Shown: piece by piece, positions 464-19,561 of the stretch
Numbering within the stretch: the first letter of the stretch is position 1
Layout: every line of letters starts with the position of its first letter
Assembly: GCA_003225335.1 (NCBI GenBank)
Contig: QHZE01000458.1
Coordinates: forward strand, 4,754-68,753
Length of the DNA stretch: 64,000 bases
From: Acidobacteriota bacterium
GTDB lineage: Bacteria > Acidobacteriota > UBA6911
Direction: 5' to 3'
The notes under the pieces: model-generated
What the model was told of the DNA's origin: nothing
Database searches by the model: none
Seen by the model: the letters and a program-made list of their open reading frames with translations, nothing else
Made by a program: the position numbers and the translations under genes

Positions 464-469
464 GAGCGT

Positions 470-3969: not shown

Positions 3970-6334
3970 CGGGGGAGAGAACTGTGGAAACGGGTAATAG
4001 ATCTTGTCCCAGGCAACCGGATCGGCGTAATGTCGTCCGTGGTGGAAATTCCAAATATTTTTCATCGTCTGTTCCACCAGCTCCATCCCGCTCACCAGGA
4101 AAAGGTTGGCCCGGTACAGCACCCCTAAGTCCGACGGGTGATCCACCACCTCGGCAAATTTCTCCGTAGTCTTCCTTCCTAATTGCCTCGCCTCCGTAAA
4201 CAGGGCGATGCTGTCGTCCATTCGCCGTAAGAAGTCCTGTTGATCTGACCTGCTGCGTAGCCGGAAGGCCTCTCCAAAGGCAATGTAGGCACGCCGTGCC
4301 GTGATCAAGGTCTGCAGGAGTAGGATGTAAGACTCGGTCTTGTTGCGCAGGTAATTCAACTCTGCGCGCCCGCGCGGTGCCACATTCTGTGAAGCCTTCT
4401 CCAGCGACCGCAAAGCTCTCTTCAACATGTCCACACTTTGTGTGAAGTAGCGAATGCTGTCGTGGCTCTGGCTAATGAATTTTTCCCAGCCCACAGGCCC
4501 CTCGAAAGGATTGGGCTGCCTGTAGAGCTGATAGGCTGTGGCAATCTCGGGGAGCACACTGCAGCAATTGAAGTTGGATCGGCCTACCCAACCCAGACTC
4601 CTTAGGCTTCAGCTTCGGATTCCAGGCGCCTTCGGCCCAATAGCGGTAGTTAGTTTCGGTGCCCCGGGCCCGGTTCAACTGGCCGACCAGGCCCGTCACC
4701 CCGTTCTCCGCTGACCCTTCCAGCGCCCGATCTTTGTCATAGAGGTTTACGTTGAACTGCATTCCGAACATGGCACTGTCGTCATCCAAGCGGTGCACTA
4801 AACTCCGCTCCCGTTCGCCCATCCCGCCGAAGTACTGCATAGGCACTCCTTGGGGCGTCGAGATGGCCCGCGACTCCATGCTGAAGAACGGCACAGTCTT
4901 GGGGAACATCTTGTCTAAGATGGGCATGAGATATCCGCGAAAAATTGTGCCAATACTCAGCCTCACGTTCGGTGCGATGCGGTCCCGCGCCTCGAGCATC
5001 TTTCGGATGATGTGTATCGAACCGATATTGGAATCAAGGACGATGTCGGGATCCCGCTCGTAAGCCGTGTAAGGCGCCCATAACTTAAGAAGCGCGTCGT
5101 ACCTGGGCCGCTCGCTCAGAAAAAGAGACTGGCTGCGCTCGTCTGAACAGTCCGGATAAAGTTCTGGGATCCACAGCAGAAATCCTTCGGCATCCGGATA
5201 GGTGGTGGCCAGAGCTTTTAGACGGCTTTCGTTGATCTCGTGCAGAATGGGGTCGGCCGGGCACATCTGGGTCCCCAGAATTGGGTGGAACGGCAACTGT
5301 GAATTGGCGGCTCGAGTGGCATAACGCGCCAGGTTGCCGGGCAAGGTGGTGGGATCAAAACTTAGTGTCATTTTGATCTTGCGAGTCTTGGCATACCGGA
5401 TCATTTCGTTGAGGAAGTCTCTGGCCACCTGGAAAGCCTGCTCGGGAGTTTCCACATCTTGAAATTCCCGCGGAGCCATCCGTGTCCGGCCGTCAAAGAG
5501 ATGTTGACCTACAGGAAGGTCCTTAATCAGATAAGAGCCGTAGTGATAGCGCCACAGCATGTAGCCGCTCTCTTTTCCTGTGGCGTCGCCCAAGAGCTTG
5601 TGCTCGCCCCGATACTCGAAATCGATCCAGGGTTCGTGCTCAAACCAGCCAAAGTTAAGGTAATTCATCTTCAGTTTAGCCATCTGGTCCAGAAAGGCCT
5701 TGACCTGCGACAGATGCCAGATACTGCGGTTCGGGTAAATGCTCGATATTGCCAGACCTCGACGCGGGAAGGGGGTTTCAACGCGAGCACTAAGAGCAGG
5801 CAGTCGCAGATCCTTGGTTTTCTCTGGCAAGATGTCTTTGTTGAACATGAAGGTCACGCCGAGTTGCTCCAGCAGTTCGTAAGCCGCGTACATAGTTGAG
5901 GCTTCGTCATTACCTCCCACGACCAAGATCTTCCGCCCGGGTAGCCTGGCGGTCTGCAAGACAAAGCCGTCCGATTTCAGACCGGAAAAGCTCACTAATC
6001 CTTTTCCCGCAGCCTGCTGAACCAAGCTGTTGACGGTAGGTCCTCCGAGCAGAATCCACAGTCCGACCGGCTTAGCCGTAGGCTGTCCGACCGAGCTGAT
6101 TTCCAATGCGGCACCGGTGATGGCTGTGATGTAGCGCTGGAGCTCTTCGGCCACAAAGCGGTGGAATGGGGTGACATTGTTGCCGATCACAATGACTGCC
6201 TGGGGCTCCCCGTCACGAACTAGATAGTCGGCTGGCGCTGAGCTGGCTGTCTGTCCATGAGAAGACCTTAAAGGGATGACAGTCAGGGCGCAAATCACGA
6301 ATTTATTTATTATCCGTGCCTTGGGAAAGTTCAT
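3916..6334 (-). pseudogene. Secreted glycoside-hydrolase-like protein (about 830 aa if repaired), frameshifted near 4470-4560; the C-terminal codons come from MITE A
   Basis: Two ORFs overlap in different frames: 6334->4472 (620 aa, signal peptide, ...IVIGNN... N-domain) and 4557->3916 (213 aa). The 213-aa part is homologous to the C-terminal domain of the gene at 38395-39567. The last residues (...PAGATQESPGRKPWEQAQ) are encoded by MITE A. Confidence 0.5.
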
Positions 6335-6501: not shown

Positions 6502-9500
6502 TTACCAAATAAACTTAAGGCCAAACTGAATGGCACGCGCCAGTCCTGCGCTGCTGATTATGCCGAAGCTGCTAGACTCTAAGGTGGTGTCCGGGCGGCC
6601 GAGGTTAACAAAATTGAAGGCGTTAAAGAACTCGGCACGAAATTGGAGGCTCTTTGACTCGCTGATCGGAAAATTTTTGTTCAGTGAAAGATCCACGTTT
6701 TTGTATCCAGGCCCATCTAAATACTGAACCCCGGCGTTGCCATAAGTCCTGAAGGCCGGGAGCGCAAAGCACCCGGTATCAAACCATCGTTCGCGCGTGC
6801 GCTGGTCAGGTGGCAGATTGCCGTTACAGATCCGGTTAGGGAAGTGGTTGAAAATAGCTCCGGTATCGGAGGGGTCCGCTATCGTATCGACGTGGAATGC
6901 GGTGCCGGATTGAAGGTTGAAAATACTATTGACCTGCCAACCGTGGAACACCTGCCTGGCCACACCGCTTTTCAGGTTTTGTCCGAGCGGCAGTTCGTAG
7001 CTCATGCTGTAAACAAAAAGGTGGCGGATGTCGAAAACACTGCGGCCGCGATCCAGATCGCCAAGACGATAGTTTCGCGTCGCTTTCGCATCAAAGGAGT
7101 CGTTATCTAAAGCCTTCGACCAGGTATAAGAGGTCTGAAAGGTCAACCCGTGGCTGTAGACCTTGCGTAGCGTTAACTGCAGACCGTTGTAGCTGGAATT
7201 GCTAAAGCCCCGGTCGTCCAAAATAAAGGAAAAACGAGGATAAGGCCGGCGCTCTTCTAAGGGTCTAGTGTCATTAAGGGCAGGGAGCGGCGCAACGTTC
7301 GAGTCAACGCGCTTGGACAGCTTCGTACCCTTTGAACCAATGTAGGCGCCTTCTAGAAACAGGTCACCGGGCAATGTGCGCTGCATGCTTAAGGTCCACT
7401 GCTGGACGTAGGGACTCCTTCGGTCGCTCAGCACAAACAGCGCAATGCCTTCGTAGGAGTTAGGGTCAAGGACATTTACATCGGGAAACAACTTCGAAAT
7501 ATCAATCGTGGGCACATTTTGGTCGCTGACTAACGTCTGACCTACAATGAAGGGAGGGAAATTCCTCTGGAAGGCCCATTCGTTCCCAGGGAGCCGGTCA
7601 TAGAAAATACCGTAGCTGCTGCGAATGGCCCATTTTTGACTCCCCCCTGGCGCCCAGGCAAAGCCGAACCGGGGGGCAAAATCATTACGGTCAGGTGTTA
7701 GCAATCCGCGGGAAACTCCGTCCCTTCCCGCCAGCAGAATCTTGCCAGTGCTAAAGTCAAAAGTCCCGATGTGGTCGTACTTTTCAATCAGCGGCTGGGT
7801 GTACTGATAGCGCAAGCCAAAGTTCAGGGTCAGGTTTTTGGTGAGTTTAAAGTTGTCGTTGACATAAGCATCCCACCAGGTTCCTCTTCGGTAAGCAGCG
7901 GGAGCGTTATTCTGTCCCCCGGCAACGAACGGCGCACCCAACAAGTAATCCGCCACCGAGTGACCGCTGAATTGCCCGGTGAATGTAAGACTCCCGCTCT
8001 GCTGGTACGCACCAATATCACGGAACTGCACACGGATGACCTGGCCGCCTAGAGTGATGTTGTGCCGACCGCGGGTGTAAGCCAGATTGTCAATGAAGTG
8101 ATAGTTGTTGTTTAAGGTGATAACACAATTTTGAAAGGTAAACCCAAAGGTACCAAATCCCGCCAGATCGACTGCTGTGACGCCGTTGCATAGGGGATTC
8201 TGGTTAAGATTTTTGAGACCCAACGCGACTGGCCAATTGGGGCTGCTGACCGCCCCCTCGGGAGTACTCGTAAATAAGACTGCCCGATCCAAACCCGAGC
8301 GAACATCGTTGACAAGGTTCGGACTGAAAACATGAGTCCACGCCAGGACGGCGTTGCGCGTGTTGAATGGACTGCTAGAGCCGTTGAAAGGTAAAATACT
8401 TGTGCCAAATTGGTCCGAGTTTGAAAGAGAAAGCCGGCCGAAAACCTTGTTACGGTCAGAAGAGTTCCAGTCCCCTCGGATATCATATTTATAATCATTC
8501 TGCACGAACCGGGTATTCCCGATTCGATTGAAGGGGCCGTCAGTTAAGGGCGTCGGTGGCGGGATAAATTGGTTATACGTTTTGGCAAACGGGCTAATAC
8601 GATCTGCGGGAATGATGTTTCCCTGGAAAGGCCGCCGGGTGCCTGTATTCGGAACATAGGTAAGGGGGTCGTAAATGATCGTTGCTGGCAGCAACGCGGA
8701 AAAGTCTCCGTTCAGCATGGCCGGGGTGGGCACAATGGCCCGCTCACCCGTGAAAGTTCGGCGGATTCGCTGTCCCTCATAAGCGCCAAAAACAAACACT
8801 TTGTCTTTTACGATCGGTCCTCCGGCCGCCACCCCAAACTGGTTCTGGCGGTTGGGGCCTTTGCCCTGCGCGAAAGCGTTGCGGGCGTCCAGCTTGTCGT
8901 TCCTCAAAAACTCCCAGGCCGCCCCGTGGAATACGTTGGTCCCTGATTTCGTCACCACATTCACTACAGCGGGAAGCCCGTACTCGGGGCTGAAGTATCC
9001 CTGCTGCACCTTGAACTCGCTGATGCCCTCTAGTACCGGCTGGGTCCCCACCGCAGCATAGAAGTTGTGTTTGCTGGGGATGCCGTCGAACAAAATGTCG
9101 TTCGATCCCTCCCGCATCCCGGACACGGCGACAGCAACCCCGGGCCGGCCGCCGGACAAACCCGTTGCATTGCTCTCGACGTTTCCGACAGCCGGATTGA
9201 CTGCGCCGGCCGACAAATAGGCCAAACTCAGAAAGGAGCGTCCGTTGAGCGGCAGTTCCACGATTCTCCTCTCCTCGATGACGTTTCCCAAAGAGGCGGT
9301 TTCAGCGTTGACCGCAACCGGGTTAGCCTCCACATTGACGGTCTGAGTCACTTCGCCAACCTGCAGGACAATGTCTTGCCGGCGTTGCTCGTCTACGCGT
9401 AGGACCAAATCATTTATTGTTGATGTACGAAATGAGACCAGTTCTGCCTTCAGAGAGTAAATTCCAGGCTGTACAAAGACGAATCGGTAATTCCCATTGT

Positions 9501-9702
9501 TGTCACTGTTGATCCTGCGGACTTCGTTGGTTTGAGTGTTGGTTAAAGTCACAGCAACGCCAGATACTACTGCCCCAGACGGGTCGGTAATCGTTCCCAA
9601 CACCTCACCGCTGCTTTTTTGAGCCGCAGCTTTGCCAGCTGCGCACAAAAACAGGATAAGCCCTATCCAGATAGATCGGCTTTTCATAAGGAGCCTCCCC
9701 AA
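6502..9702 (-). CDS. TonB-dependent outer-membrane receptor (CarboxypepD_reg-like N-domain + plug + beta-barrel, 1066 aa)
   Basis: Signal peptide MKSRSIWIGLILFLCAAGKAAAQ. An Acidobacteria-type CarboxypepD_reg domain is present (GTITDPSGAVVSGVAVTLTN...GNYRF). The C-terminus ends ...IQFGLKFIW, with terminal aromatic residues. Confidence 0.8.
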   Translation of the reverse strand: MGRLLMKSRSIWIGLILFLCAAGKAAAQKSSGEVLGTITDPSGAVVSGVAVTLTNTQTNEVRRINSDNNGNYRFVFVQPGIYSLKAELVSFRTSTINDLVLRVDEQRRQDIVLQVGEVTQTVNVEANPVAVNAETASLGNVIEERRIVELPLNGRSFLSLAYLSAGAVNPAVGNVESNATGLSGGRPGVAVAVSGMREGSNDILFDGIPSKHNFYAAVGTQPVLEGISEFKVQQGYFSPEYGLPAVVNVVTKSGTNVFHGAAWEFLRNDKLDARNAFAQGKGPNRQNQFGVAAGGPIVKDKVFVFGAYEGQRIRRTFTGERAIVPTPAMLNGDFSALLPATIIYDPLTYVPNTGTRRPFQGNIIPADRISPFAKTYNQFIPPPTPLTDGPFNRIGNTRFVQNDYKYDIRGDWNSSDRNKVFGRLSLSNSDQFGTSILPFNGSSSPFNTRNAVLAWTHVFSPNLVNDVRSGLDRAVLFTSTPEGAVSSPNWPVALGLKNLNQNPLCNGVTAVDLAGFGTFGFTFQNCVITLNNNYHFIDNLAYTRGRHNITLGGQVIRVQFRDIGAYQQSGSLTFTGQFSGHSVADYLLGAPFVAGGQNNAPAAYRRGTWWDAYVNDNFKLTKNLTLNFGLRYQYTQPLIEKYDHIGTFDFSTGKILLAGRDGVSRGLLTPDRNDFAPRFGFAWAPGGSQKWAIRSSYGIFYDRLPGNEWAFQRNFPPFIVGQTLVSDQNVPTIDISKLFPDVNVLDPNSYEGIALFVLSDRRSPYVQQWTLSMQRTLPGDLFLEGAYIGSKGTKLSKRVDSNVAPLPALNDTRPLEERRPYPRFSFILDDRGFSNSSYNGLQLTLRKVYSHGLTFQTSYTWSKALDNDSFDAKATRNYRLGDLDRGRSVFDIRHLFVYSMSYELPLGQNLKSGVARQVFHGWQVNSIFNLQSGTAFHVDTIADPSDTGAIFNHFPNRICNGNLPPDQRTRERWFDTGCFALPAFRTYGNAGVQYLDGPGYKNVDLSLNKNFPISESKSLQFRAEFFNAFNFVNLGRPDTTLESSSFGIISSAGLARAIQFGLKFIW

Positions 9703-9823: not shown

Positions 9824-10516
9824 TCATGTGACGTCGGAGATTTTCTCCAGGGTCTTGCGTCCCTGCTCAACATGATTGCGGAGGAGCTGCTCCGCCAGCT
9901 CGCCGTCCTTTCGCTCGAAGGCCTCGATAATTTGTCGATGCTCCCCGGTAGAATGGTGCATGCGGCCGGGCATGTTGAGCGAGAATATGCGAAATCGGTA
10001 GATCTGCTCCTTGTAGCTGGACACCAGGCTCGAGAGCCTCTGGTTGGTGCATCTGTCCAGGAAAGTCTGATGGAATTCGGTGTTCAGGTTCATGAAGGTG
10101 GAAGCGTCGCCCGCCTTGGCAGCCTTCACCATTTGGCGGTCCAGTTTCCTAAGCTTGCGAATATCGGCTGGCTCCATATTGGCGGCAGCGATCCGAGCGG
10201 CGAGCCCTTCCAGGGCAGCAACAATCGGATAGATTTCACCGAGATCCACCTTGGAGATCTCAGATACTACGGCCCCTTTTCCTGGGTCCAGGGTGACCAA
10301 TCCCTCGTGCTCCAGTCGCATCAACGCCTCCCGGATCGGAGTCCGGCTGATGCCGAGATGGTTCCCAAGATCGACTTCGTTCAGTTTCTGACCCGGCTTG
10401 AGTCCTCCCCTGGTGATAGACTCCTTGAGGAACTCATACACCTCAATCCGCAGAGGCTTCCTCTTAAACCGCTCCTTTTCGAGTTTTAGTTCTTGGAGGT
10501 TGCTTTCGGCCATCAT
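9824..10516 (-). CDS. GntR-family transcriptional regulator (FadR/FCD subfamily)
   Basis: A helix-turn-helix is present (LNEVDLGNHLGISRTPIREALMRLEHEGLV) followed by an FCD-like C-domain. Two adjacent ATG codons at 10516/10513 follow an AGAAAGGAA ribosome-binding site. The ORF track's start at 10561 is probably too long. Confidence 0.8.
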   Translation of the reverse strand: MMAESNLQELKLEKERFKRKPLRIEVYEFLKESITRGGLKPGQKLNEVDLGNHLGISRTPIREALMRLEHEGLVTLDPGKGAVVSEISKVDLGEIYPIVAALEGLAARIAAANMEPADIRKLRKLDRQMVKAAKAGDASTFMNLNTEFHQTFLDRCTNQRLSSLVSSYKEQIYRFRIFSLNMPGRMHHSTGEHRQIIEAFERKDGELAEQLLRNHVEQGRKTLEKISDVT

Positions 10517-10752
10517 CGTTCCTTTCTCTGGATCCCTTGATCTACGGGGAAAGGCGATCAATCGGGCCGAGTGGTCGTAAACGTCGCCTGTGAATGATTC
10601 GACTAGCTACTGGACGAGAGAGACAGATTGTTCACACTCGGCTCTGGATTCCCTCATGTCGCCGGCATCGCCCAGACTATCAGCGTGGGGATTGCTTTCG
10701 ACGCAAACGGTCCATGCTACGTGTCGGTGAGCCGGAGACATGGCATCGTGGC

Positions 10753-11919
10753 TCAAGGCAGAGACCTGGCGACATCGCCGCGATAGATGTCGATAATCTC
10801 ACGATTATAGGCTAACCCGAAACCGGGTTTCTCGGAAGCCTCCATGTAACCGTCCCTTATCGGTGGCCTATTCTCTGGGAGCTCGTGCCACATGGGATCC
10901 CGCTCCGGATCGGGAAACACCTCGACATAAGTCGAGTTGGGAACTGACGCTAAGAGGTGAAGAGCTACCTGAGGCTCCTCATGATGCCCCATCTTGACGT
11001 TCATCATCTGCGCAAAGGTGGCGGCTCTCCTCCATTCCGTGACCCCTCCGGCTATGGTTGCATCTACATTGAGGATGTCGACACATCTGTTGAGAATCAA
11101 ATCGCGGCATCCCAGGCTGGAGATTTCTCCTTGCCCGGCCACGATCGGAATGTCCGTTTCTTCCCGCAAGCGCCTCAGCCCGACCAGCTGATCGTTCCAC
11201 CGGATCGGCTCTTCCAGCCATTCCAGCTCGTAATCCTTGGCGCCACGCGCAAACTGGAGCGCCTCATCGAACGTCCAGGCCTGGTTGGCGTCGCAGCACA
11301 GCAGGAGACGCTTGCCGAAGTGTTTCCGCAGCGTCTCGACTCGCTTCAGATCCTGGGTGATTTGCAGGCTTCCGACCTTAAGCTTGATGCCGGACAGCCC
11401 GAAGGCCAAGAACGACTCGACTTCGCTCACCAGACCTTCGAGATCCCCGGCGCTCCGGTGGTACCCTCCGATCCCGATCACAGGCACCTTGTTTCGAAAG
11501 CCCCCGAGCAGACGCCACACAGGCTTGTTAAGAGCCTTTCCCAGGGTGTCCCAGAGTCCCAGGTCGATGATCGCTATTGCTTGCATGAGAACGGCGTGAT
11601 TGATCAGGTCAAGGGTATGAATGCCCCGGTTGTGAAAGGGGAGCGGAGCAGTACTGATCATCGCCTGCCACAGCTCTTCGATGGGCAGAAGCTCCATTCC
11701 AATGATCCGAGGCGCTAGAAACTCGTTGGCGACCGCCACGACCTTCGCTTGGTAGATATCTTCGTCTCCCCCGAAAGCCTCCCCGAGGATCCCCTCCTCA
11801 GTTTCCACCCTGACGAAAAGGGTATTGCGGGAGACAATTTGGTAGGTGCTTCCTTGAAACGCCCTGTTGAGCCTGCGAACCAATGGAATGACCTGTATGT
11901 TCTTGATCTTTTGAGTCAT
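10753..11919 (-). CDS. Enolase-superfamily sugar-acid dehydratase (mandelate racemase subgroup; L-rhamnonate/L-fuconate/galactonate dehydratase-like)
   Basis: A KxK motif is present (GIKLKVG). The metal-ligand region is present (CCDANQAWT ... LEWLEEP). The fold is a typical MR/MLE N-capping domain plus barrel. The gene is adjacent to the GntR regulator and shares an intergenic region with the divergent operon. Confidence 0.7.
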   Translation of the reverse strand: MTQKIKNIQVIPLVRRLNRAFQGSTYQIVSRNTLFVRVETEEGILGEAFGGDEDIYQAKVVAVANEFLAPRIIGMELLPIEELWQAMISTAPLPFHNRGIHTLDLINHAVLMQAIAIIDLGLWDTLGKALNKPVWRLLGGFRNKVPVIGIGGYHRSAGDLEGLVSEVESFLAFGLSGIKLKVGSLQITQDLKRVETLRKHFGKRLLLCCDANQAWTFDEALQFARGAKDYELEWLEEPIRWNDQLVGLRRLREETDIPIVAGQGEISSLGCRDLILNRCVDILNVDATIAGGVTEWRRAATFAQMMNVKMGHHEEPQVALHLLASVPNSTYVEVFPDPERDPMWHELPENRPPIRDGYMEASEKPGFGLAYNREIIDIYRGDVARSLP

Positions 11920-11960
11920 TGGCTGGAAGTGAGCTAAAATATCTCCGAGATACATTTATA

Positions 11961-11970
11961 TTGTATACAA
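11961..11970. promoter_or_regulatory. Perfect 10-bp palindrome TTGTATACAA, a candidate GntR-type operator in a divergent promoter region
   Basis: The sequence fits the GntR/FadR consensus core (T.GT...AC.A). It lies within about 45 bp upstream of the dehydratase start and about 300 bp upstream of the CoA-ligase operon. Related TGTATACA motifs occur at 41855-41862, 42126-42133 and 26867-26881. Confidence 0.35.
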
Positions 11971-12269
11971 GATCCGCTGAAAGAACATAGTGGAAATTGG
12001 AAATTGATTCGCTTGGCCAACCGGGGTTTCCCGGCCCCCTGATTGTGTCCCGGCAGTACGGCGGCAACCCTCCGGCTCCGGGAGACGGGGAGTCAGGGAG
12101 TTTTGGAGCCGCCCTCTCCATGCCACGAGCCTCGGGAGGTCTGAAGGCCTCCACAAGATTCCGCAGTTTCTACAAGTTGCCAGAGAAACTTTGTAGACAT
12201 TCGGATGGCAATTTCCTATACTATGCGGTTGTATGCAATATACATTATTTGGGCTGGGCGGAAGGACGA

Positions 12270-13499
12270 GTGCGACTCTACGAGTATGAGGCCAAAGAGA
12301 TCTTGAAGGCTCGCGGCATCAATGTTCCGATTGGCCTGTTGATTCCCGGTCACGAGCAGTCGACGCCCATTGATTCCTTGGTTCCGGCGGTTGCCAAGGT
12401 TCAGACCCAACGGGGAAGGCGTCAGAAGCTGGGAGGTGTCGTCGCCGTTGATTCCGTGACATCGGCGCTGGAAATCGTCCAAAAGATGCTGGGACGCGAG
12501 ATTGGTGGCGAGCAGGTGCATCACGTATTGCTGGAGCAGCGCATTCCCTTTGAGGAGGAGTACTTCTTGGGGGTCACCTACGATAGCCTCGCCCGTCGTC
12601 CTGTCGCGGTTTTCAGTGACCGCGGGGGAGTCGACATCGAAGAGGCCGCCGCGTTTCAGCCTGACCGGGTCCACCGTTTGGTCATTAATCCCTGTAAGAA
12701 ATTCCGGAACTATCATGCGTGCGACTGGCTCTGCGGGCTAGGGTTTTCAGGGAAGCGTCTACGCTCATTGACCGATATCGTCAACAGAGTAGTTTCGATG
12801 TTCTTCGAGTACGATGCGTTTCTCCTCGAGATTAATCCGCTGGCGAGAATGGCGGACGACAATTTCGTAGCGCTCGATTGTCATATCGATATTGACGGAG
12901 ACGCCCTGTCACGCGTGCCGCTGAAGCACGTTGAGAACTTGTCCAACCGAGCGGAGGGCACCCGGCGCCTAACTGAGTTCGAGCGGAGGGCACGCGAGAT
13001 CGATGAACTCGATTATCGGGGCGTTGCCGGCCGCGTGGTGGAATGTCCAGGGAACCTGGGGCTCCTGATCGGTGGAGGTGGTGCCAGTTTGACCATCTTC
13101 GATGCCGTGCGAGACTGCGGGGGACGACCGGCCAACTATTGTGAGATTGGAGGAAACCCAACGGTAAGGAAAGTCAAAGAGCTGACGAAGCTCTTGGTCA
13201 GCCAGCCCAACGTGGAAAAACTGGCCGTGATCATGAACGTCGTAAGCAACACGCGGGCAGATCTGGTGGCACGAGGAGTCATCATGGGGATCCGAGAAGC
13301 GGGGAAAGACCCGTGCGAGACGATCGTCGTATTCCGCCTTCCCGGTTCGGGTGAGGATGAGTGTCGGAAGCTGCTGAACTACTATGGCATTCCCTTCAGT
13401 GGGCGAGAACTCCCGATCGACGATGCGGCGGCCCTTGCGGTTGCAAGATGCAACAAGCCGGTGGGGAACGCGGAGGTGTCTCATGGGCATTTTGACTGA
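12270..13499 (+). CDS. ADP-forming acyl-CoA synthetase beta subunit (succinyl-CoA-synthetase SucC-like, ATP-grasp)
   Basis: The N-terminus LYEYEAKEILKARGINVP is typical of SucC. A GTG at 12270 follows GGAAGGA. The C-terminal region has the ligase-CoA domain. The ORF track's start at 11997 runs through the intergenic region. Confidence 0.65.
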   Translation: MRLYEYEAKEILKARGINVPIGLLIPGHEQSTPIDSLVPAVAKVQTQRGRRQKLGGVVAVDSVTSALEIVQKMLGREIGGEQVHHVLLEQRIPFEEEYFLGVTYDSLARRPVAVFSDRGGVDIEEAAAFQPDRVHRLVINPCKKFRNYHACDWLCGLGFSGKRLRSLTDIVNRVVSMFFEYDAFLLEINPLARMADDNFVALDCHIDIDGDALSRVPLKHVENLSNRAEGTRRLTEFERRAREIDELDYRGVAGRVVECPGNLGLLIGGGGASLTIFDAVRDCGGRPANYCEIGGNPTVRKVKELTKLLVSQPNVEKLAVIMNVVSNTRADLVARGVIMGIREAGKDPCETIVVFRLPGSGEDECRKLLNYYGIPFSGRELPIDDAAALAVARCNKPVGNAEVSHGHFD

Positions 13500-14394
13500 C
13501 CAAAATACAACCATAGTCGTCCAAGGCATAACTGGTCGGGAAGCCAGCATCCTGGTCAAAGATTCTCTCGACTACGGCGCCCGGATCCTCGCGGGGGTGA
13601 CGCCCGGCAAAGGCGGGCAGCACGTGTCCGGAGTTATGGTCTACGACTCCGTCAGGAGGGCCGTCCAGGAGCACGGGGTCAATGCGAGTGTCATTTCGGT
13701 GCCGCCCCTGGCGGTAAGAGACGCTGCCTTCGAGGCGCTGGAAAGCGGCATCAAACTTATCGTTATCCTCACAGAGCGCGTTCCAAGACAGGATATCGTG
13801 CAGATTCTCACTTCTGCGGAGGAGGAGGGAGCCAGGGTCATAGGACCCAACAGTCTTGGACTTCTCACCCCGGGCGTTACCAAGGTTGGCGGGCTTGGCG
13901 GGAGCGTGAACAATACGCGTAGGAGTTTCACGAGTGGGACAGTCGGGGTGATTTCCCGAAGCGGCGGCATGACCTGCGAAGTCGCGAATTTGCTCACCCA
14001 AAACGGGATTGGCCAATCGACGTGTGTTAGCATTGGCGGTGACCCGATCGTCGGGTTGAACTTCACGGAGCTTTTCCGCTTCTTTCAAGATGATCCTGAG
14101 ACTGAAGCGGTGACCATTTTCTGCGAGCCCGGGGGGAGCATGGAAGAGCATTTCGCTGCGTACTATGCCACCCAGGAGCATCCGAAACCGGTCGTCGCGT
14201 TCGTGGCAGGCAAGTTCGTCGATCAAATGCCGGGGACTCGATTCGGCCATGCAGCCGTCATCGTCGAGGGTGTGCGGGGAAGCGCTCAACGGAAAGTCGA
14301 AGTCATGCGGAAGGCGGGAATCCACGTGGCGGACAAACTTTCGGAGATTCCACGCCTTGTGAAAACGGTCCTGAATCATGGGAATGTTCATTGA
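13483..14394 (+). CDS. ADP-forming acyl-CoA synthetase alpha subunit (SucD-like CoA-binding/ligase-CoA)
   Basis: MGILTDQNTTIVVQGITGREASI... is a canonical SucD N-terminus. GGAGGTG lies upstream of the ATG at 13483. The gene overlaps the beta-subunit gene by 17 nt. Confidence 0.7.
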   Translation: MGILTDQNTTIVVQGITGREASILVKDSLDYGARILAGVTPGKGGQHVSGVMVYDSVRRAVQEHGVNASVISVPPLAVRDAAFEALESGIKLIVILTERVPRQDIVQILTSAEEEGARVIGPNSLGLLTPGVTKVGGLGGSVNNTRRSFTSGTVGVISRSGGMTCEVANLLTQNGIGQSTCVSIGGDPIVGLNFTELFRFFQDDPETEAVTIFCEPGGSMEEHFAAYYATQEHPKPVVAFVAGKFVDQMPGTRFGHAAVIVEGVRGSAQRKVEVMRKAGIHVADKLSEIPRLVKTVLNHGNVH

Positions 14395-14590
14395 GATTTC
14401 GGTCCGGGATAAAGAGTTCCTCCGGACTGCGGCAGCACGCGCACTCGTGGATGCATGCCCGGTGGAGATCTTTGAGCCGGTCGATCGTCGTGTCCGTGTA
14501 AACAAAGACCAGGAGGATGAGTGCACCTTGTGCGGTCGGTGCCTGGAGATCGCCGGTGACCGGATAGAAATCATCAAGCACTACGATTGA
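14378..14590 (+). CDS. Small Cys-rich ferredoxin-like protein (70 aa)
   Basis: CPVEIFEP...CTLCGRC (CxxCxxC) motifs are present. The gene overlaps the sucD-like stop and directly precedes the E1 beta gene. Confidence 0.4.
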   Translation: MGMFIEISVRDKEFLRTAAARALVDACPVEIFEPVDRRVRVNKDQEDECTLCGRCLEIAGDRIEIIKHYD

Positions 14591-14650
14591 GGGGCAGGGA
14601 GATGCTGGGAAGTTTCGCTTCCGAGCGAGTCCAGAACCACCGGAGCGACG

Positions 14651-15625
14651 ATGAGACAGATCACATACTCGCAGGCCATTAACGAGGCCATCCGCGAAGA
14701 AATGCGGCGCGATCCGAACATTGTCCTCCTGGGTCAGGACATCGGCTCCTACGGCGGGACGTTCGGGGTTTATCGTGATCTATTCGAGGAGTTTGGGGAA
14801 GAACGCGTCCGAGATGGGCCCCTTTCGGAGGCGGCAACGGCTGGTTTTGGCATCGGCTTGGCGATCGCTGGAATGCGCGCCATCGTCGAGATCGAATTCA
14901 TGGATTTCTCGACGCTGGTTCTCGACGCCATCGTCAACCAGGCTGCCAAGATGCGATACTTCTACGGGGGCAAGTTGAAAGTGCCCGTGGTGATTCGAAC
15001 GCCCGCCGCCACCAAGCTTGGGCTGGGCGCACAACATTCACAAAGCCTCGAAGCATGGTTCATGCACAGCCCGGGCTTGAGGATTGCCATGCCGTCGACA
15101 CCCCGCGACGCAAAGGGCCTACTGAAGACGGCCATACGGCAGGATGATCCGGTCGTTTTCATTGAGCATGTTCGCCTGTACGCCAGCAAGGGCGAAGTGC
15201 CCGAAGACGAATACCTCGAGCCGTTCGGGAAGGCCCGAATCGTACGCGAAGGGTCGGATGTGACCGTCGTCGCGGTTGCGATGATGGTGCAGGAGGCGAT
15301 GCAGGCAGCAGAGGAACTGCAAAAGGAGGGGATCAGCGCGGAGCTTATCGATCCTCGGACACTGGCACCTCTGGACCGGGAGACGATCGTGAGGTCGGTG
15401 GAAAAGACTGGCAGGCTGATTGTCACGCACGAGGCCTATCAGACCGCGGGGATCGGTGCCGAGATCGGCCAGATCGCCCAGGAGGGGGCTTTCGACTACC
15501 TCGTCGCTCCGGTAAAGCGTGTGGCGGGTAAGGACCAACCGATACCTTGTGGTACCCTCCAGGAAAAGGTCTTTCCCAACCGCGACCGGATCATCGAGGC
15601 CGTTCGCGATCTCATGGCAAGTTAG
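14651..15625 (+). CDS. TPP-dependent 2-oxoacid dehydrogenase E1 component, beta subunit (transketolase-like C-domain)
   Basis: ...LLGQDIGSYGGTFGVYRDL...MDFSTLVLDAIVNQAAKMRY... matches the E1-beta / acetoin dehydrogenase beta family. Confidence 0.8.
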   Translation: MRQITYSQAINEAIREEMRRDPNIVLLGQDIGSYGGTFGVYRDLFEEFGEERVRDGPLSEAATAGFGIGLAIAGMRAIVEIEFMDFSTLVLDAIVNQAAKMRYFYGGKLKVPVVIRTPAATKLGLGAQHSQSLEAWFMHSPGLRIAMPSTPRDAKGLLKTAIRQDDPVVFIEHVRLYASKGEVPEDEYLEPFGKARIVREGSDVTVVAVAMMVQEAMQAAEELQKEGISAELIDPRTLAPLDRETIVRSVEKTGRLIVTHEAYQTAGIGAEIGQIAQEGAFDYLVAPVKRVAGKDQPIPCGTLQEKVFPNRDRIIEAVRDLMAS

Positions 15626-15629
15626 GACT

Positions 15630-16610
15630 ATGACGCAGTCTTTGAAGACCACGGTACTGGCCCAGGCACAGATGCTCGACTTTTACCGCCAGATGACGCT
15701 CATCCGTCACTTTGAGGAGAGGGTCGTTGAGCTGTTCGGCAAGGGCCTCATCAGCGGGTCGACCCACCCCTGCATTGCCCAGGAGGCCATCGCAGTTGGC
15801 GCTATCGCGGCGGTGAGCCGGGAGGATCAGGTCTTGGCCACCTACCGTGGGCATGGGCAGATGCTGGCAAAGGGAGGGGACCCGAAGAAGATCATGGCTG
15901 AGATCCTTTGCCGGGGGACCGGGTACTGCAAGGGGAAAGGGGGTTCCATGCATCTGTGCGATCCAGAGATAGGGTTTCTGGGAACGAATGCCATCGTCGC
16001 GGCCCACATTCCCATTGCAGCAGGTGTGGCTCTGGCCAACAAGATCCGGGGCAACGGCCTGGTTACTCTCTGCTTTTTTGGCGATGGGGCTTCGAATGAA
16101 GGCGTGTTCTACGAAACGGCCAATATGGCCGCCCTGTGGCGAGTGCCACTCGTGATGATCTGTGAGAATAACGGCTTCGCCATTTCGGTTCCGGTTGAAA
16201 AAGCGGTAAGTGTCAAGGATATCGCCGTGAGAGCGCAGGCGTTCGGGTTTCCGGGCGAGGCGGTGGATGGTAATGACGTGCTCCAGGTTTACGAGATCAC
16301 GCGAAAGGCGGTCGAACGCGCCCGCCGTGGGGACGGGCCTACGTTGATCGAGTGCAAGACCGTGCGCTGGGAGCGTCACAGCGCCATTTCCGCGGGAAAG
16401 TACGCATCCCGGGAAGAAATGAAGCGCTGGCAAAAGACGGACCCCATCCCACGCTTCCGCGCTCACCTGGCCGACACAGTCCGAGTCTCAGGCGCGCAGT
16501 TGGAGTCGATCGAGAGGGAGGCCAGGGAAGTGGGCGACCAGGCGGTAGAGTTTGCCCTTCAAAGCCCTCCGGCTGCAGAGTCGGAGCTGGCGGAAGATAT
16601 CTTTGCCTGA
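15630..16610 (+). CDS. TPP-dependent 2-oxoacid dehydrogenase E1 component, alpha subunit
   Basis: A TPP-binding motif is present (GDGASNEGVFYETANMAALW). YRGHG and GKGGSMH motifs are present. The ATG lies 4 nt after the beta stop. The order is beta then alpha, and no E2/E3 genes are nearby. Confidence 0.8.
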   Translation: MTQSLKTTVLAQAQMLDFYRQMTLIRHFEERVVELFGKGLISGSTHPCIAQEAIAVGAIAAVSREDQVLATYRGHGQMLAKGGDPKKIMAEILCRGTGYCKGKGGSMHLCDPEIGFLGTNAIVAAHIPIAAGVALANKIRGNGLVTLCFFGDGASNEGVFYETANMAALWRVPLVMICENNGFAISVPVEKAVSVKDIAVRAQAFGFPGEAVDGNDVLQVYEITRKAVERARRGDGPTLIECKTVRWERHSAISAGKYASREEMKRWQKTDPIPRFRAHLADTVRVSGAQLESIEREAREVGDQAVEFALQSPPAAESELAEDIFA

Positions 16611-16631
16611 AGCTTCCGAGAGCGCCATCCA

Positions 16632-18035
16632 GTGAAAAGCAGAGCCAGGATCGGGCTCGTAGCCCTCTACTTCGATATGTTCGACGATATCATGCCCCCC
16701 TCCTTTCGGCAGGAAAAGGAAGCCGTCGGCAGAGAAATCGCCACGATGCTGGGTCAGCTCTGCGAAGTCGATTACCCCGGCATTATTGCGAACGAGGCAA
16801 AGGCGGTTGAGGCGGCGGACCGGTGGGGCCAGGCGGGCCTGGACGCCATCATCTTTTTTCCCACGATGGCATCACCTCCTTCGTTCAGCTGGGCAGTGGC
16901 TCGCGCCTCTAAGCTCCCTTTGCTGATTTGGAACGGCCACTTGATCCAAGAGATTCACGACTCATTCACGTATCACGACGCCAATCGATACAGCAGCAAC
17001 GTTGGTACCATCATGGTCACCAACGTCTTTCTGCGGGAGGGCCGTACTTTTCACCTCATCAGCGGCTACTACCGCGATCGGAATGTCCTCGAACAGATAC
17101 GACGATACCTCGATGCGGTGGTTGCGGCGAATCGGCTGCGTAATGCGCGGGTCGGCCGCATCGGTCGCGAGATCCAGGGGTATGCCGACGTGAGTATCGA
17201 GGAAGAACCGCTCCGGTCCAATCTGGGAACTCAGATTGTTCCAATCGAGAAGGAGGAATTGGAGCGCGCTTACCGTGACGTCAATCCTTCCCGGATTCGC
17301 GATCATCGGAATCAACTGGGGGAAGAGTATCAGTTGGAAGTGCCTGAGGAGATCCTGGAGAGTTCCATCCGGATCGCGCTTGCGCTCGAAGACTTGTTCG
17401 TCAAGCATCAGCTGGACGCGGCCGCGATCAATTGCCACTCCGATCTCTTTCGCCGAAACCCTGAAATCGGGCTGGTTGCATGCTATGGGGCCTCCCGGCT
17501 AACGGGAATGGGGTTTCCCGTCTCATGCACGGGAGATATACCGACCTCGATCGCCATGCTGGTCCTGAAGGCTCTTGGCGGGCAAGCGCACTACTGCGAG
17601 TGCGTCATGACGGACCATGTGCAGAACTACATCCTCTTCACCAACACCGGAGAGGGAGACCCCACTCTGGCGCGCACCAATCGTAAGAAATGCCTGATCT
17701 GCAATGAGCACTATCCCGGTCTCCGCGGTGGAGGTGCGAGCCCGGTCTTTTCGTGCCGAGGCGGCGCCGCAACCATGGTTGGATTTTCGCCCAAGATGGG
17801 GGCTGCGAAGGGGCATGTCCTCGTTGCCGCTCAAGGAGAGGTGCTCGGGACCTTCCATGAGGACACCCGGGTGGCCAATGCGGCCTTCCGCTTCAAAAAC
17901 CACAGCTGTCTGGAAGGATTCAATCGCTGGTGCATGGCCGGCGCACCCCATCATGGCGCTTTCACTCTGGGAGACTTCTCCCGACAAATGCAATACGTCG
18001 CAGACTTGTGGGGACCGCAGCTGATCCTCATTTGA
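16632..18035 (+). CDS. L-fucose/L-arabinose isomerase family protein (467 aa)
   Basis: GTG start. The N-terminal ...IGLVALYFDMF... and the C-terminal ...HHGAFTLGD resemble the FucI/AraA-like sugar isomerase family. Confidence 0.55.
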   Translation: MKSRARIGLVALYFDMFDDIMPPSFRQEKEAVGREIATMLGQLCEVDYPGIIANEAKAVEAADRWGQAGLDAIIFFPTMASPPSFSWAVARASKLPLLIWNGHLIQEIHDSFTYHDANRYSSNVGTIMVTNVFLREGRTFHLISGYYRDRNVLEQIRRYLDAVVAANRLRNARVGRIGREIQGYADVSIEEEPLRSNLGTQIVPIEKEELERAYRDVNPSRIRDHRNQLGEEYQLEVPEEILESSIRIALALEDLFVKHQLDAAAINCHSDLFRRNPEIGLVACYGASRLTGMGFPVSCTGDIPTSIAMLVLKALGGQAHYCECVMTDHVQNYILFTNTGEGDPTLARTNRKKCLICNEHYPGLRGGGASPVFSCRGGAATMVGFSPKMGAAKGHVLVAAQGEVLGTFHEDTRVANAAFRFKNHSCLEGFNRWCMAGAPHHGAFTLGDFSRQMQYVADLWGPQLILI

Positions 18036-18184
18036 GAGGCGATAGAGTATGGTCGGAGAGACTCCTGAAGCCGCCCGTTCATACAAGCGCATTCGCGACC
18101 AGGCCGATATCCTTGTCCCTCCCTTCGATCCGGAGCTTTTCCAGCGCCATCACGACGGCATCATCGCCTGAGAGACAGTGCGCC

Positions 18185-19225
18185 ATGCCCGCAGAAGCGA
18201 GTTTCGGAACCGGGATCCTGGTGGTGCTGGTCGGCGCCTTCGCCAACGGCTCCTTCGGCCTGATGCTCAAGTACGCCAAGAGCTGGAAGTGGGAGCATCT
18301 TTGGTTGACCTACTCCGTGTTCGCGATGCTCATAATCCCCTGGACCCTGGGATTTGCCACGGTTCCAGAGCTTCTCACCGTCTTGCGCTCGGCCAGTACT
18401 CGAGACCTGAGCGTCGTCTTCGTATTTGGGTTCGGCTGGGGAATCGGTGCGGTGCTCTACGGTTTGGCACTGAAACTGGTTGGGATGGCCCTGAGCTACT
18501 CAATAGTCGTAGGCCTCACAGCCGCTATCGGCTCGTTGGCACCGCTTGTACTTGTACACCCTGAGGAGGTTTTCACCCTGAGGGGCAGGGTGATCATCAG
18601 CGGGGTCCTCATGATCGTTGTCGGAGTTGTGTTTTGTGCCTGGGCCGGCCATCTGAAGGAGAAGGTGCTCGCATCGACTTCGGTGGGAGCGCATCCGAGT
18701 TCAGAGCGGGAGAACTTTCCGCTCGGGCTGGGCGTTGCGGTTCTTTCGGGAATCCTGTCTCCCATGCTGAACCTGAGCTTCGCCTATGGAACCCCCTTGA
18801 CTCGCCTGGCCGTCGGCCATGGGACGGATCCGCTCTTTGCCGCCAACATCATTTGGGTGGTCGCGCTCTTAGGGGGATTCCTGGTGAACACTGGGTATTG
18901 TGCCTACCTGATTTCCAGCAGGGGCAGCTGGGCATTGATGTCGATAGAGCGCTTCCATTACCTTCTGGGACTCATCATGGGCGTGTTGTGGTCGGCCGGC
19001 ATCGTCTTCTATGGGATCGGCGCTTCCAAGCTCGGGGATCTCGCGGCGGTCGTGGGATGGCCCGTGATGTCCTCGATGGCCATCATGAGTGCAAATCTGT
19101 GGGGTGCAATTGCCGGAGAGTGGGCCGACACCGGTAGAAAACCACGCATCGTCATGTGGCTTTCGGTTGTGGTGCTGGGCGCCGCAATGTTCGTCGTCGG
19201 CTGGGGAGATCGGCTCGGGCGATAG
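18185..19225 (+). CDS. rhaT: L-rhamnose/H+ symporter family (RhaT-like, DMT superfamily) sugar transporter
   Basis: The sequence (KSWKWEHLW...FGFGWGIGAVLYGLALKLVGMALSYSIVVG) is similar in pattern to E. coli RhaT (KKWSWETMW...FGAMWGIGNINYGL...). About 10 TM segments. The internal ATG at 18185 was chosen because the frame upstream runs into the previous gene. Confidence 0.7.
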   Translation: MPAEASFGTGILVVLVGAFANGSFGLMLKYAKSWKWEHLWLTYSVFAMLIIPWTLGFATVPELLTVLRSASTRDLSVVFVFGFGWGIGAVLYGLALKLVGMALSYSIVVGLTAAIGSLAPLVLVHPEEVFTLRGRVIISGVLMIVVGVVFCAWAGHLKEKVLASTSVGAHPSSERENFPLGLGVAVLSGILSPMLNLSFAYGTPLTRLAVGHGTDPLFAANIIWVVALLGGFLVNTGYCAYLISSRGSWALMSIERFHYLLGLIMGVLWSAGIVFYGIGASKLGDLAAVVGWPVMSSMAIMSANLWGAIAGEWADTGRKPRIVMWLSVVVLGAAMFVVGWGDRLGR

Positions 19226-19271: not shown

Positions 19272-19561
19272 TTAGCTAGTTTCTGGCGCGAAACTAGCCC
19301 CGCAGGGGCGACTCAGGAAAGCCCAGGGCGCAAGCCCTGGGAACAAGCACAGTAACAAGGGAAGCCCCGAAGGGGCGATGCAGTTGGTCCCGGTACCAAA
19401 GAGGCGCCTTATGACGAGCATTTATCTGGAGTTGAGATCGAACTCCCTGCGCCGCCCTTTCAGGGCTTTCCGCAATTTGGCCCTTGAACCCAGGGCTTGC
19501 GCCCTGGGCTGTCCTGCTGGACCCCTTCGGGGTCCTTGGTTTCGCGCCAGAAAGTAGCTAG
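19272..19561. mobile_element. MITE family A, full copy (about 290 bp) with roughly 22-bp TIRs
   Basis: The TIRs are ttagctagtttctggcgcgaaac ... gtttcgcgccagaaagtagctag. It is the reverse complement of the copy at 3710-3969, with internal sub-palindromes. Confidence 0.7.

Follow-up and report, generated by a model that had tools for sequence, protein, structure and literature searches.

A predicted GntR-controlled sugar-acid gene cluster from an Acidobacteriota genome, with a distinct E1 clade and a citryl-CoA-synthetase-like ligase

What are the two subunits of a thiamine diphosphate (ThDP)-dependent E1 and the two subunits of an ADP-forming CoA ligase doing among sugar genes? The question is raised by nine genes at 9824-19225 of a 64-kb stretch of Acidobacteriota DNA (hereafter the window; contig QHZE01000458.1, positions 4,754 to 68,753). 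A first-pass annotation of the window had suggested a variant pathway in which a 2-keto-3-deoxy sugar acid, or a 2-oxoacid derived from it, is oxidatively decarboxylated and the acyl-CoA is converted to ATP. Our own answer is tentative, and we hold it with a little less than half of our confidence: the nine genes would be a GntR-repressed catabolic unit, made of two divergent operons, of a sugar-acid pathway that is widespread among soil bacteria and uncharacterised. Joined genes for a sugar-acid dehydratase, a PDH-like E1 and a citryl-CoA-synthetase-like ligase are found again in numerous uncultured bacteria of soil, and probably indicate a so far undescribed catabolism of sugar acids from plants. 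The E1 is best read as decarboxylating a 2-keto-3-deoxy acid oxidatively, because an MR-type dehydratase is its most constant neighbour; that part of the earlier suggestion is retained here, while the role given to a ferredoxin-like protein and the idea of an E1 chemistry without E2 are not.

Gene calls rest on a listing of open reading frames (ORFs) and on Pfam and NCBIfam profile scans. All nine genes are intact as ORFs, in the families and in the divergent layout already given by the first-pass annotation; the dehydratase (MR2 in what follows) precedes the regulator, with which it is co-directional, and the pair diverges from a run of seven plus-strand genes. The two operons and their control signals are as follows.

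9824-10516, minus strand: regulator with GntR and FCD domains, second gene of the MR-GntR operon.
10753-11955, minus strand: MR_MLE_N/C dehydratase (MR2), first gene of the MR-GntR operon.
11954-11970, minus strand: putative operator, copy 1, reading TTGTATACAATATAAAT and abutting the MR2 start codon.
12194-12222, plus strand: sigma-70-like promoter TAGACA-17-TATACT, 10 of 12 consensus positions; a consensus match only.
12229-12245, plus strand: putative operator, copy 2, TTGTATGCAATATACAT, lying after the -10-like hexamer and before the SucC start.
12270-13499, plus strand: SucC-like ATP-grasp (beta, large) ligase subunit.
13483-14394, plus strand: SucD-like CoA-binding (alpha, small) ligase subunit.
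14378-14590, plus strand: Cys-rich, ferredoxin-like ORF of 70 residues.
14651-15625, plus strand: E1 beta.
15627-16610, plus strand: E1 alpha.
16632-18035, plus strand: AraA-like protein (AraA/FucI fold).
18185-19225, plus strand: putative RhaT-family (DMT) sugar:proton symporter.
19519-19535, plus strand: terminator-like hairpin GGACCCCTTCGGGGTCC with a T-rich tail, after the RhaT gene; a consensus match only.

Successive genes of the plus-strand run overlap by 17 nucleotides or are separated by gaps of 1-150. The listed ORFs 11997-13499, 15519-16610 and 17930-19225 carry spurious 5' extensions, artefacts of mechanical ORF listing, and the promoter-like site and the operator fall inside the first of these extensions. 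Entries PYU99562-PYU99567, from a 71,941-bp contig of an Acidobacteria metagenome-assembled genome (MAG), match the proteins of the cluster exactly and are annotated only generically or as hypothetical; their NCBI names include alpha-ketoacid dehydrogenase and succinate-CoA ligase. Contigs of other metagenome assemblies (L088-L092; L-numbers label genomic loci throughout) carry the same gene arrangement at 96-100% protein identity, and the 90%-identity cluster of each protein holds 11-42 member sequences, on many contigs.

The E1 genes have the domains and motifs of a heterotetrameric (alpha2beta2) ThDP enzyme. E1 beta consists of Transket_pyr and Transketolase_C (144 and 136 bits) and passes the pyruvate dehydrogenase (PDH) beta model NF006667 (370.5 bits, cut-off 321). 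E1 alpha matches E1_dh at 267 bits and just misses TIGR03182 (365.8 bits, cut-off 393.85); in its translation the ThDP motif GDG...NN is intact (FFGDGASNEG...ICENNG). Its best match in the Protein Data Bank (PDB) is human PDHA1 (215 bits, aligned residues 8-325), against which the equivalents of His63 and His263 are kept, with Ser in place of Phe61 and VRWERHS in place of YRYHGHS. Scanning metagenomes with E1 beta and scoring the neighbourhoods defined a clade with the gene order beta-then-alpha, in which E1 beta is 60-88% identical to that of the window (81-88% in the orthologues of L001, L006, L087 and L093), whereas PDH-like operons with the order alpha-then-beta reach at most 57%. The motifs GSTHPC, TYRGHG and TVRWERHS are invariant in all beta-then-alpha loci. 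The signature was also present in 110 of the 120 best database matches to E1 alpha, and no match of the 120 falls below 58% identity to the query. More than 25 loci embed the clade in sugar clusters. Its sequence signatures place the E1 in a clade that is large and distinct, and it is probably not a housekeeping PDH. Acetoin dehydrogenase (AcoABCL) was rejected as an identity: the order here is beta-then-alpha, AcoC- and AcoL-like genes are absent, and acetoin occurs in automated names only, among them the acetoin:DCPIP oxidoreductase found with the E1 matches.

Does this E1 work without E2 and E3, as the first-pass annotation had it? For the window the description is correct: neither tblastn with the E2 of L001 nor Pfam, run on almost every large ORF, found a lipoyl, E2-core or E3 (Pyr_redox) gene in the 64 kb. 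For the clade it fails. A full E2 is present in 11 E1-clade loci, and a mini-E2, lipoyl-only or lipoyl plus PSBD, lies directly upstream in six more (L099, L107, L108, L109, L113 and L171; the PSBD was detected in four of the six). Since these 17 related loci place an E2 or mini-E2 beside E1, the chemistry of the clade is probably lipoyl-dependent. The informative E1-clade loci that have no E2 are three, namely the window, L106 and L170. Acidobacteriota loci L001/L005, L006 and L087 have the operon order E2-SucC-SucD-small protein-E1 beta-E1 alpha, with RhaT divergent. The missing E2 is thus a peculiarity of the window lineage, and we infer that E2 and E3 are used in trans from elsewhere in the genome. 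The mini-E2 proteins have about 160 residues (L171:7334-7825, for one) and no acyltransferase core, and they sit directly upstream of MR2 or of E1 beta.

MR2 orthologues (49-66% identity) lie within a few kb of E1 or E2 in at least 16 distinct loci, and MR2 is the most constant neighbour of the E1. It matches MR_MLE_C at 172 bits and MR_MLE_N at 47.8 bits. The KxK motif, D/E/E metal ligands and His-Asp dyad of an MR-subgroup acid-sugar dehydratase were located by inspection of the translation, not by structural alignment, in the motifs GIKLKVG, CCDANQ, LEEP, AGQGE, NVDAT and MGHHEEP. Among NCBIfam models it comes nearest to L-talarate/galactarate dehydratase (168 bits) and to arabinonate dehydratase (158 bits), both scores being far below cut-off, and none of the closest structures (3msy, 3no1 and 4h83) has an assigned function. 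L-rhamnonate dehydratase (RhamD/LRA3) was rejected: MR2 reaches 99 bits on NF011968 against a cut-off of 393, and in L171 another gene, which is RhamD-like (279 bits), stands next to MR2. In L002, L003 and L085, where a citryl-CoA lyase (CCL) gene replaces E1, MR2 is called as split or short ORFs; its decay where the E1 is gone speaks for a joint role of the two.

A CoA thioester appears to be handled next to the E1, because either the ligase or a CoA-transferase with a lyase fills that place.

SucCD-like ligase, with the small protein or CCL, together with E1: the window, L001, L006, L087, L098, L103 and L104.
Family-III CoA-transferase and CitE-like lyase beside E1, replacing the ligase: L094-96, L101 and L110-111.
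Other companions of the E1 clade, in several loci: a second MR type, SDR, AP_endonuc_2, AraA-like (often overlapping an SDR gene), GH67N-like, ceramidase-like and cyclase proteins.

In L098, L103 and L104, E2, SucCD, CCL, E1 and MR2 stand in one operon, and CCL adjoins the ligase in L002, L085, L098 and L103-105. The nearest models of the CoA-transferases are succinate-glutarate and succinyl-CoA:mesaconate. Several of the other companions also occur elsewhere in the window.

The ligase itself, in the first-pass annotation an ADP-forming CoA ligase, belongs to the superfamily of ADP-forming acid-CoA ligases (SCS/CCS/ACLY), with an ATP-grasp subunit and a CoA-binding subunit that has a phosphohistidine loop; an identity as succinyl-CoA synthetase (SCS) is not borne out. 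The SucC-like subunit carries ATP-grasp_2 (138 bits) and Citrate_bind (29 bits, above the gathering cut-off) and has no Ligase_CoA match; it scores 232.5 bits on the SCS-beta model (cut-off 370) and lies as far from Thermus SCS-beta (165 bits) as from Hydrogenobacter citryl-CoA synthetase (CCS; 6hxq_B, 160 bits). With CCS it shares an insert (...ExExxxIDxxDxRGxAGxxVE...) and the loops GGGGAS and NTRxD, positions at which SCS differs. The SucD-like subunit has CoA_binding, Succ_CoA_lig and Ligase_CoA domains, keeps the phosphohistidine motif FGHAA in its translation, and scores 296 bits on SCS-alpha models with cut-offs of 336 and 353. SCS (SucCD) was rejected on these scores, both subunits lying under the SCS cut-offs, and on the C-terminus of the beta subunit, which is Citrate_bind and not Ligase_CoA; malate-CoA ligase (MtkAB) was rejected with 171 bits on NF010647 against a cut-off of 604. 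By its loops and domains the large subunit looks like that of a citryl-CoA synthetase, not SCS.

To place this ligase we gathered 80 genomic loci around its relatives and scored their neighbours by tblastn. The usual order is SucC-SucD-(CitE-like lyase)-small protein, an arrangement found in MAGs annotated as Desulfobacterales, Dehalococcoidia/Chloroflexota, Binatia, Myxococcota and Acidobacteriota. Since the order with a lyase predominates, activation and cleavage of an acid is the commonest context of the family. The neighbouring lyases are CitE/RipC/malyl-CoA-lyase-like and match C-C_Bond_Lyase; their matches to that domain and to the citE, RipC and malyl-CoA lyase models rule out HpaI/YfaU-type aldolases. 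The closest sister loci of the window, L002 and L085, read GntR and MR, then SucC, SucD, small protein and CCL, with CCL above NCBIfam cut-offs. No CoA-ester lyase is encoded in the window, where nearly all large ORFs were scanned with Pfam, nor was a lyase found within 10 kb in L001, L006 or L087.

Some loci of the ligase family depart from this pattern. At L170:7802-9025, as in L009, a SucC-like ATP-grasp gene stands without a SucD-like partner, a lone large subunit being unexpected in the family; in L170 it overlaps the start of E1 beta, and genes for MR2, a NIPSNAP protein, a CitE-like lyase and RhaT come after it. L168:7756-11455 reads GntR, then SucC, SucD, small protein and AraA-like, followed by a ceramidase-like protein, AP_endonuc_2 and a second AraA-like paralogue, and the run continues with an epimerase, an MR protein, a 2-hydroxyacid dehydrogenase and an SSF transporter; neither E1 nor a lyase lies within 10 kb. 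The gene order of L168 ties the ligase to the rare isomerase-like family described below.

The ferredoxin-like protein goes with the ligase. It had been counted as part of an oxidative module with the E1, but its homologues follow SucD, or SucD and the lyase, in about 60 of the 80 loci, across phyla, and it accompanies the ligase family even where E1 is absent. We reject it for that reason as an electron acceptor of the E1. Its Fer4 matches are weak and all below cut-off (Fer4_9 18.5 bits, cut-off 27). It keeps four Cys (CP...CxxCxxC), which in ferredoxins with two clusters are the ligands of one of them; in an alignment, Desulfobacterales homologues keep two full ferredoxin Cys motifs and acidobacterial ones CP...CxxCxxC. 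By motif, the Cys set is enough for a single [4Fe-4S] cluster. From its neighbourhoods the protein is a conserved ligase companion and putative third subunit, independent of any E1.

Whether the ligase and E1 genes share the control of the dehydratase can be judged from the divergent region. The regulator has FCD (105.9 bits) and GntR (62.3 bits) domains of the FadR-like subfamily and is under every NCBIfam equivalog cut-off; its orthologues (51-67% identity) adjoin SucC in L002, L085 and L168. A 17-bp element, TTGTATRCAATATAMAT, occurs twice in the 314-bp divergent region, once ahead of each operon, and these are its only exact matches in the 64 kb; relaxed matching found 8 against 0.8 expected. 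The two copies form an inverted-repeat pair (I1) that is 88% complementary. Conserved versions of the element stand before SucC in L168 (CTGTATGCAATATACAC), L002 (CTGTATGCAATATACAA) and L085 (CTGTATACAATGTCC): the form CTGTATGCAATATACA precedes SucC in the first two, and a degenerate form in the third. These orthologous elements (15-17 bp) were recognised by direct reading of the sequence; a simple regular expression for the GntR palindrome matched none of them. A winged helix-turn-helix and an FCD domain, together with a palindromic element of TnGT...ACnA core in the protein's own control region, are consistent with the GntR/FadR subfamily. The E1 and SucCD genes fall inside the predicted GntR regulon because the element precedes both operons and is kept in three orthologous loci. 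The first-pass annotation had named a regulon without these genes as the finding that would count against it; with the predicted operator as the guide, the cluster holds as one regulatory unit under GntR control.

Near-copies of the element occur at 26868-26882 (TGTATACTATATACA), 41848-41862 (TGTATACAATATGTA) and 42119-42133 (TGTATACAGGATACA). One is at the start of a gene for a PPC-domain protein, and two flank the start of a TonB-type barrel gene (42092-45337), the second such barrel of the window. They hint that the GntR regulon may be wider than the two operons.

The remaining two genes of the cluster, and others beyond it, bear on the sugar. The AraA-like protein scores 31 bits on Arabinose_Iso_C and 47.7 on NF002795 (cut-off 622), and only 15 homologues of it were detected among 5.8 billion proteins. 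Its AlphaFold2 model (pLDDT 93.4) is matched by Foldseek to L-arabinose isomerases with template-modelling (TM) scores of 0.87-0.89, E-values down to 1e-35 and 15-18% identity; L-fucose isomerases come next. In a HMMER alignment of low confidence the canonical E306, E331 and H348 are replaced by T, T and N, and the His pair 440-441 is kept; the near-invariant residues of the family are H269, D302, E323, D343, H440 and H441. The model makes it a member of the AraA fold, presumably an aldose-ketose isomerase, and not demonstrably an L-arabinose isomerase. The transporter matches Pfam RhaT at 122 bits (cut-off 27) and the best NCBIfam RhaT model at 233.8 (cut-off 369), and RhaT homologues flank the E1 operon in L001, L006, L087, L170 and L171. 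Two genes that had been reported elsewhere in the window, a sugar-phosphate isomerase and rhaM, are present and are probably associated with the cluster.

39593-40426, plus strand: AP_endonuc_2 protein (xylose-isomerase-like TIM barrel; 87.6 bits; 61% identical to its homologue in L168), which is the sugar-phosphate isomerase of the first-pass annotation.
40449-40763, plus strand: rhaM-like mutarotase (TIGR02625, 52 bits, below the cut-off of 99.6; tblastn E = 8e-14).

Another rhaM-like gene lies inside the L098 operon. In L171, part of a 6.8-Mb genome, the cluster comprises RhaT, a RhamD-like dehydratase, DHDPS, SDR, mini-E2, MR2, E1 beta and E1 alpha, and beside it are a GH106 rhamnosidase and an SDR-isomerase pair; GH106 also occurs in L107 and L110. 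With RhaT and a rhaM-like gene in the window, and GH106, RhamD-like and RhaT genes in E1-clade loci, the proposed deoxy-hexose (rhamnose) context is plausible on this gene content.

What pathway could these genes serve? The RhaT-type symporter would import a sugar from rhamnose-containing glycans, whether L-rhamnose, a co-released sugar or a sugar acid; the AraA-fold isomerase would take part in processing it, and the MR-type dehydratase would yield a 2-keto-3-deoxy sugar acid. The dedicated ThDP E1 would decarboxylate that acid oxidatively onto a lipoyl carrier, and E2 and E3 from elsewhere would lead to a beta-hydroxyacyl-CoA. The CCS-like ligase with its ferredoxin-like third subunit would interconvert this thioester and the free acid, the lyase-less version probably yielding ATP; across the clade the beta-hydroxyacyl-CoA would either be cleaved, by CitE or CCL, or lose its CoA to the free acid through the CoA-transferase or the ligase. 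An acyl group resembling citrate or glutarate is probable, because the ligase has CCS-type loops, dicarboxylate CoA-transferases substitute for it, and MR2 is nearest to the talarate/galactarate dehydratase model. The substrate, step order and ligase direction given here are those that we infer. The ATP formation of the earlier suggestion is not established, as most relatives of the ligase pair with lyases.

A more specific version is possible, and we hold it with less confidence, about one part in three: an undescribed non-phosphorylative route in which a lipoyl-dependent 2-keto-3-deoxy-sugar-acid dehydrogenase replaces the aldolase, the CoA ester passing either to a CitE- or CCL-type lyase, with acetyl-CoA and an aldehyde as products, or, in the window, to the Fe-S three-subunit ligase with formation of ATP. 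One chemically coherent though unproven instance would start from 5-keto-4-deoxyglucarate, derived from a hexarate or an unsaturated uronate, which would give 3,4-dihydroxyglutaryl-CoA, then 3,4-dihydroxyglutarate and ATP, and then, through an MR enzyme, 2-oxoglutarate. Alternatively, 2-keto-3-deoxy-L-rhamnonate (L-KDR) would give 3,4-dihydroxypentanoyl-CoA; this variant fits the RhaT and rhaM genes better and the ligase family worse than the 5-keto-4-deoxyglucarate scheme.

Several observations weigh against the proposed pathway. E2 and E3 are missing from the window, and the operon has neither a sugar 1-dehydrogenase nor a lactonase, the SDR gene nearby being frameshifted. The ligase family is mostly paired with citryl-CoA lyase or CitE-type lyases, which implies acid activation. 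A hydroxy-dicarboxylate would suit the CCS-like acid-binding loops, and the dicarboxylate-type CoA-transferases that stand in for the ligase, better than a derivative of a 6-deoxy-hexonate would, and the separate RhamD-like dehydratase of L171 means that MR2 is probably not a rhamnonate dehydratase. Finally, L168, with ligase, small protein and isomerase-like gene and without E1, is fully explained by no model.

The main rival keeps the ligase in the direction typical of its family. The CCS-like ligase and its Fe-S subunit would spend ATP on a citrate-, malate- or citramalate-like acid, a lyase encoded elsewhere would split the thioester into acetyl-CoA and a 2-oxoacid or aldehyde, and E1 with E2 and E3 in trans would oxidise the released 2-oxoacid (pyruvate or an oxaloacetate-like acid). 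The predominance of SucC-SucD-CitE-like lyase-small protein among ligase-family loci speaks for it, as do the CCL genes of L002 and L085, the joint operons of L098, L103 and L104, the closeness of the E1 to PDH E1 and the CCS-type loops. It is nevertheless unlikely in our view: the lyase that it needs is absent from the window and from within 10 kb in L001, L006 and L087, the E1 clade departs from PDH-type E1s at active-site positions, and the constant adjacency of MR2 and E1 is left unexplained.

The cluster might instead be decaying or mosaic, its lineage having lost E2, and any lyase, from an ancestral E2-SucCD-small protein-E1 operon, so that the pathway is incomplete. An E2 gene directly upstream of SucC in L001, L006 and L087 is indeed what the window lacks, an SDR gene close by has a frameshift, only a fragment is left of an MlrC-like gene, and MR and GntR genes decay in sister loci. 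Yet the nine ORFs and both predicted operators are intact, the arrangement is repeated in L088-L092 and on the many contigs of the 90%-identity clusters, and the identity of E1 beta to its orthologues suggests purifying selection, all of which makes decay improbable.

Quite improbable, too, is an oxidative cleavage of a ketose, in which the isomerase would make the ketose, an acetoin dehydrogenase- or transketolase-like E1 would release a two-carbon unit as an acetyl- or glycolyl-lipoyl or CoA ester, and the ligase would convert it to acid and ATP. E1/E2-like systems that move glycolaldehyde units oxidatively from ketoses have a precedent in natural-product biosynthesis; in the window, as in L093, the isomerase gene comes directly after E1 alpha, and the minimal L087 operon (RhaT divergent from E2-SucCD-small protein-E1) has no MR gene. 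Automated names, as noted, include acetoin:DCPIP oxidoreductase. The same E1 clade, with identical active-site signatures, is however found in many loci without the isomerase, its constant partner is MR2, the ligase and CoA-transferase families point to dicarboxylates, and the acoABCL order, AcoC and AcoL are absent.

That an ordinary pyruvate or acetoin dehydrogenase E1 and an SCS lie by chance beside sugar genes, a housekeeping unit of the kind that the first-pass annotation named as its own possible refutation, is largely refuted and very improbable, for all that E1 beta exceeds the PDH-beta cut-off and that NCBI names such enzymes: both SCS-like subunits and E1 alpha fall below theirs, the ligase beta subunit has Citrate_bind and not Ligase_CoA, the predicted operator is shared with the MR-GntR operon, and the same genes, the E1 a distinct clade, recur in sugar clusters at more than 25 loci, with no E2 or E3 adjacent in the window.

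How does the proposed sugar-acid pathway compare with known systems? The sucAB-sucCD genes of the tricarboxylic acid (TCA) cycle likewise join a lipoyl-dependent 2-oxoacid dehydrogenase and a two-subunit ADP-forming ligase in one operon, which permits conversion of a 2-oxoacid through acyl-CoA to acid and ATP, and the operons of L001, L006 and L087 similarly begin with E2. The E1 of the cluster differs in being a heterotetramer of alpha and beta, nearest to PDH and not to E1o, and the cluster as a whole in its CCS-like ligase, extra ferredoxin-like subunit, GntR-controlled sugar setting and lack of E2 and E3 in the window. Hydrogenobacter CcsAB/Ccl and ATP-citrate lyase resemble it in the large subunit (6hxq_B, 160 bits; CCS insert and loops; Citrate_bind) and in the CCL of sister loci, whereas the window has no CCL and its ligase stands beside E1, an MR dehydratase and sugar genes, not reductive-TCA genes. 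We know of no Fe-S-like small subunit in CCS, while a conserved one accompanies the ligase of the cluster.

The non-phosphorylative L-rhamnose and L-fucose pathways (LRA1-4; LRA1-3 with LRA5-6) share with it an enolase-superfamily dehydratase that yields a 2-keto-3-deoxy acid, and the rhamnose context. The operon is unlike them in that a ThDP E1 and a CoA ligase stand where the aldolase or hydrolase acts; it encodes neither a rhamnose 1-dehydrogenase nor a lactonase, KDR aldolase, KDR 4-dehydrogenase and diketo-hydrolase are likewise missing, and MR2 scores 99 bits on the RhamD model. PDH E1s (mitochondrial and alphaproteobacterial) and AcoAB have the same fold, ThDP motif and His63/His263 equivalents, and E1 beta passes NF006667; the E1 of the cluster is set apart by its beta-then-alpha order, its own signatures, an E1 alpha under the TIGR03182 cut-off, MR dehydratases and CoA ligases or transferases as partners, and an E2 reduced to lipoyl and PSBD in six loci. 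With L-arabinose and L-fucose isomerases the AraA-like protein has the AraA fold in common (TM 0.87-0.89), and it differs in its 15-18% identity, in E306, E331 and H348, which are not aligned, and in a family of 15 members. The isomerase-like gene is paired with SDR in L095, L096, L107 and L171, as kduI is with kduD; the KduI fold differs from the AraA fold.

A search of the available literature found no description of this gene combination, which is apparently undescribed as a cluster, although all of its parts belong, by sequence, to known superfamilies. It comprises three separate findings: the TVRWERHS E1 clade, the three-protein CCS-like ligase and the rare AraA-fold family.

Among the genes around the cluster, two on the minus strand are probably associated with it, for uptake and depolymerisation.

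4472-6334, minus strand: GH67N-like protein, with homologues in the E1-clade loci L096 and L101 (60% identity).
6502-9702, minus strand: TonB-dependent-type outer-membrane barrel.

GH67N-like, 'ceramidase_alk'-like and PF04199 cyclase proteins, in the window at 4472-6334 and 35290-37924, recur near E1 or ligase clusters (L001, L096, L101 and L168). None of the three has an informative PDB or NCBIfam match, and they may be uncharacterised glycan-processing enzymes. Besides RhaT, a putative importer of acid sugars is encoded near the cluster: an MFS transporter at 25291-26694 (plus strand) scores best, with 240 bits and below cut-off, on the model of the D-galactonate (anion:cation symporter) subfamily.

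The frameshifted SDR gene (24019-24760, minus strand) has its Rossmann N-terminus (GRVALVTGAS...) out of frame with an ORF of 200 residues and is a pseudogene or an assembly error. At 40523-41642 (plus strand), after an ORF without a family match, an ORF of 126 residues encodes the C-terminal part only of an MlrC-like peptidase (MlrC_C, profile positions 68-173), probably a gene remnant. Upstream of the cluster (5-3561, plus strand) are hydantoinase A/B (oxoprolinase-like) and a sarcosine-oxidase-like FAD enzyme; hydantoinase A/B is also found near the sister SucCD-CCL cluster (L002:1-3713), perhaps by synteny or through a functional link. A minus-strand run at 48759-58710 encodes an AMP-binding-like protein, a radical SAM protein, two large proteins without a family match, a MoxR-like AAA_3 ATPase and a 776-residue protein with TCAD9 and dual-specificity phosphatase domains, with a response-regulator/HD protein alongside; it looks like a conflict or signalling system unrelated to the sugar cluster.

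Whatever the pathway, a CCS-like ligase with a conserved ferredoxin-like subunit is an unstudied architecture, and all components of the cluster are soluble enzymes, open to expression and assay. If the proposed pathway is true, oxidative decarboxylation to a CoA thioester would be a third generic exit from 2-keto-3-deoxy sugar acids, besides aldol cleavage and dehydration, and its yield would include additional NADH and possibly ATP. In the degradation of plant polysaccharides Acidobacteriota play a major part. The E1 clade is common in soil metagenomes, and models of soil carbon flow would, in that case, gain a pathway.

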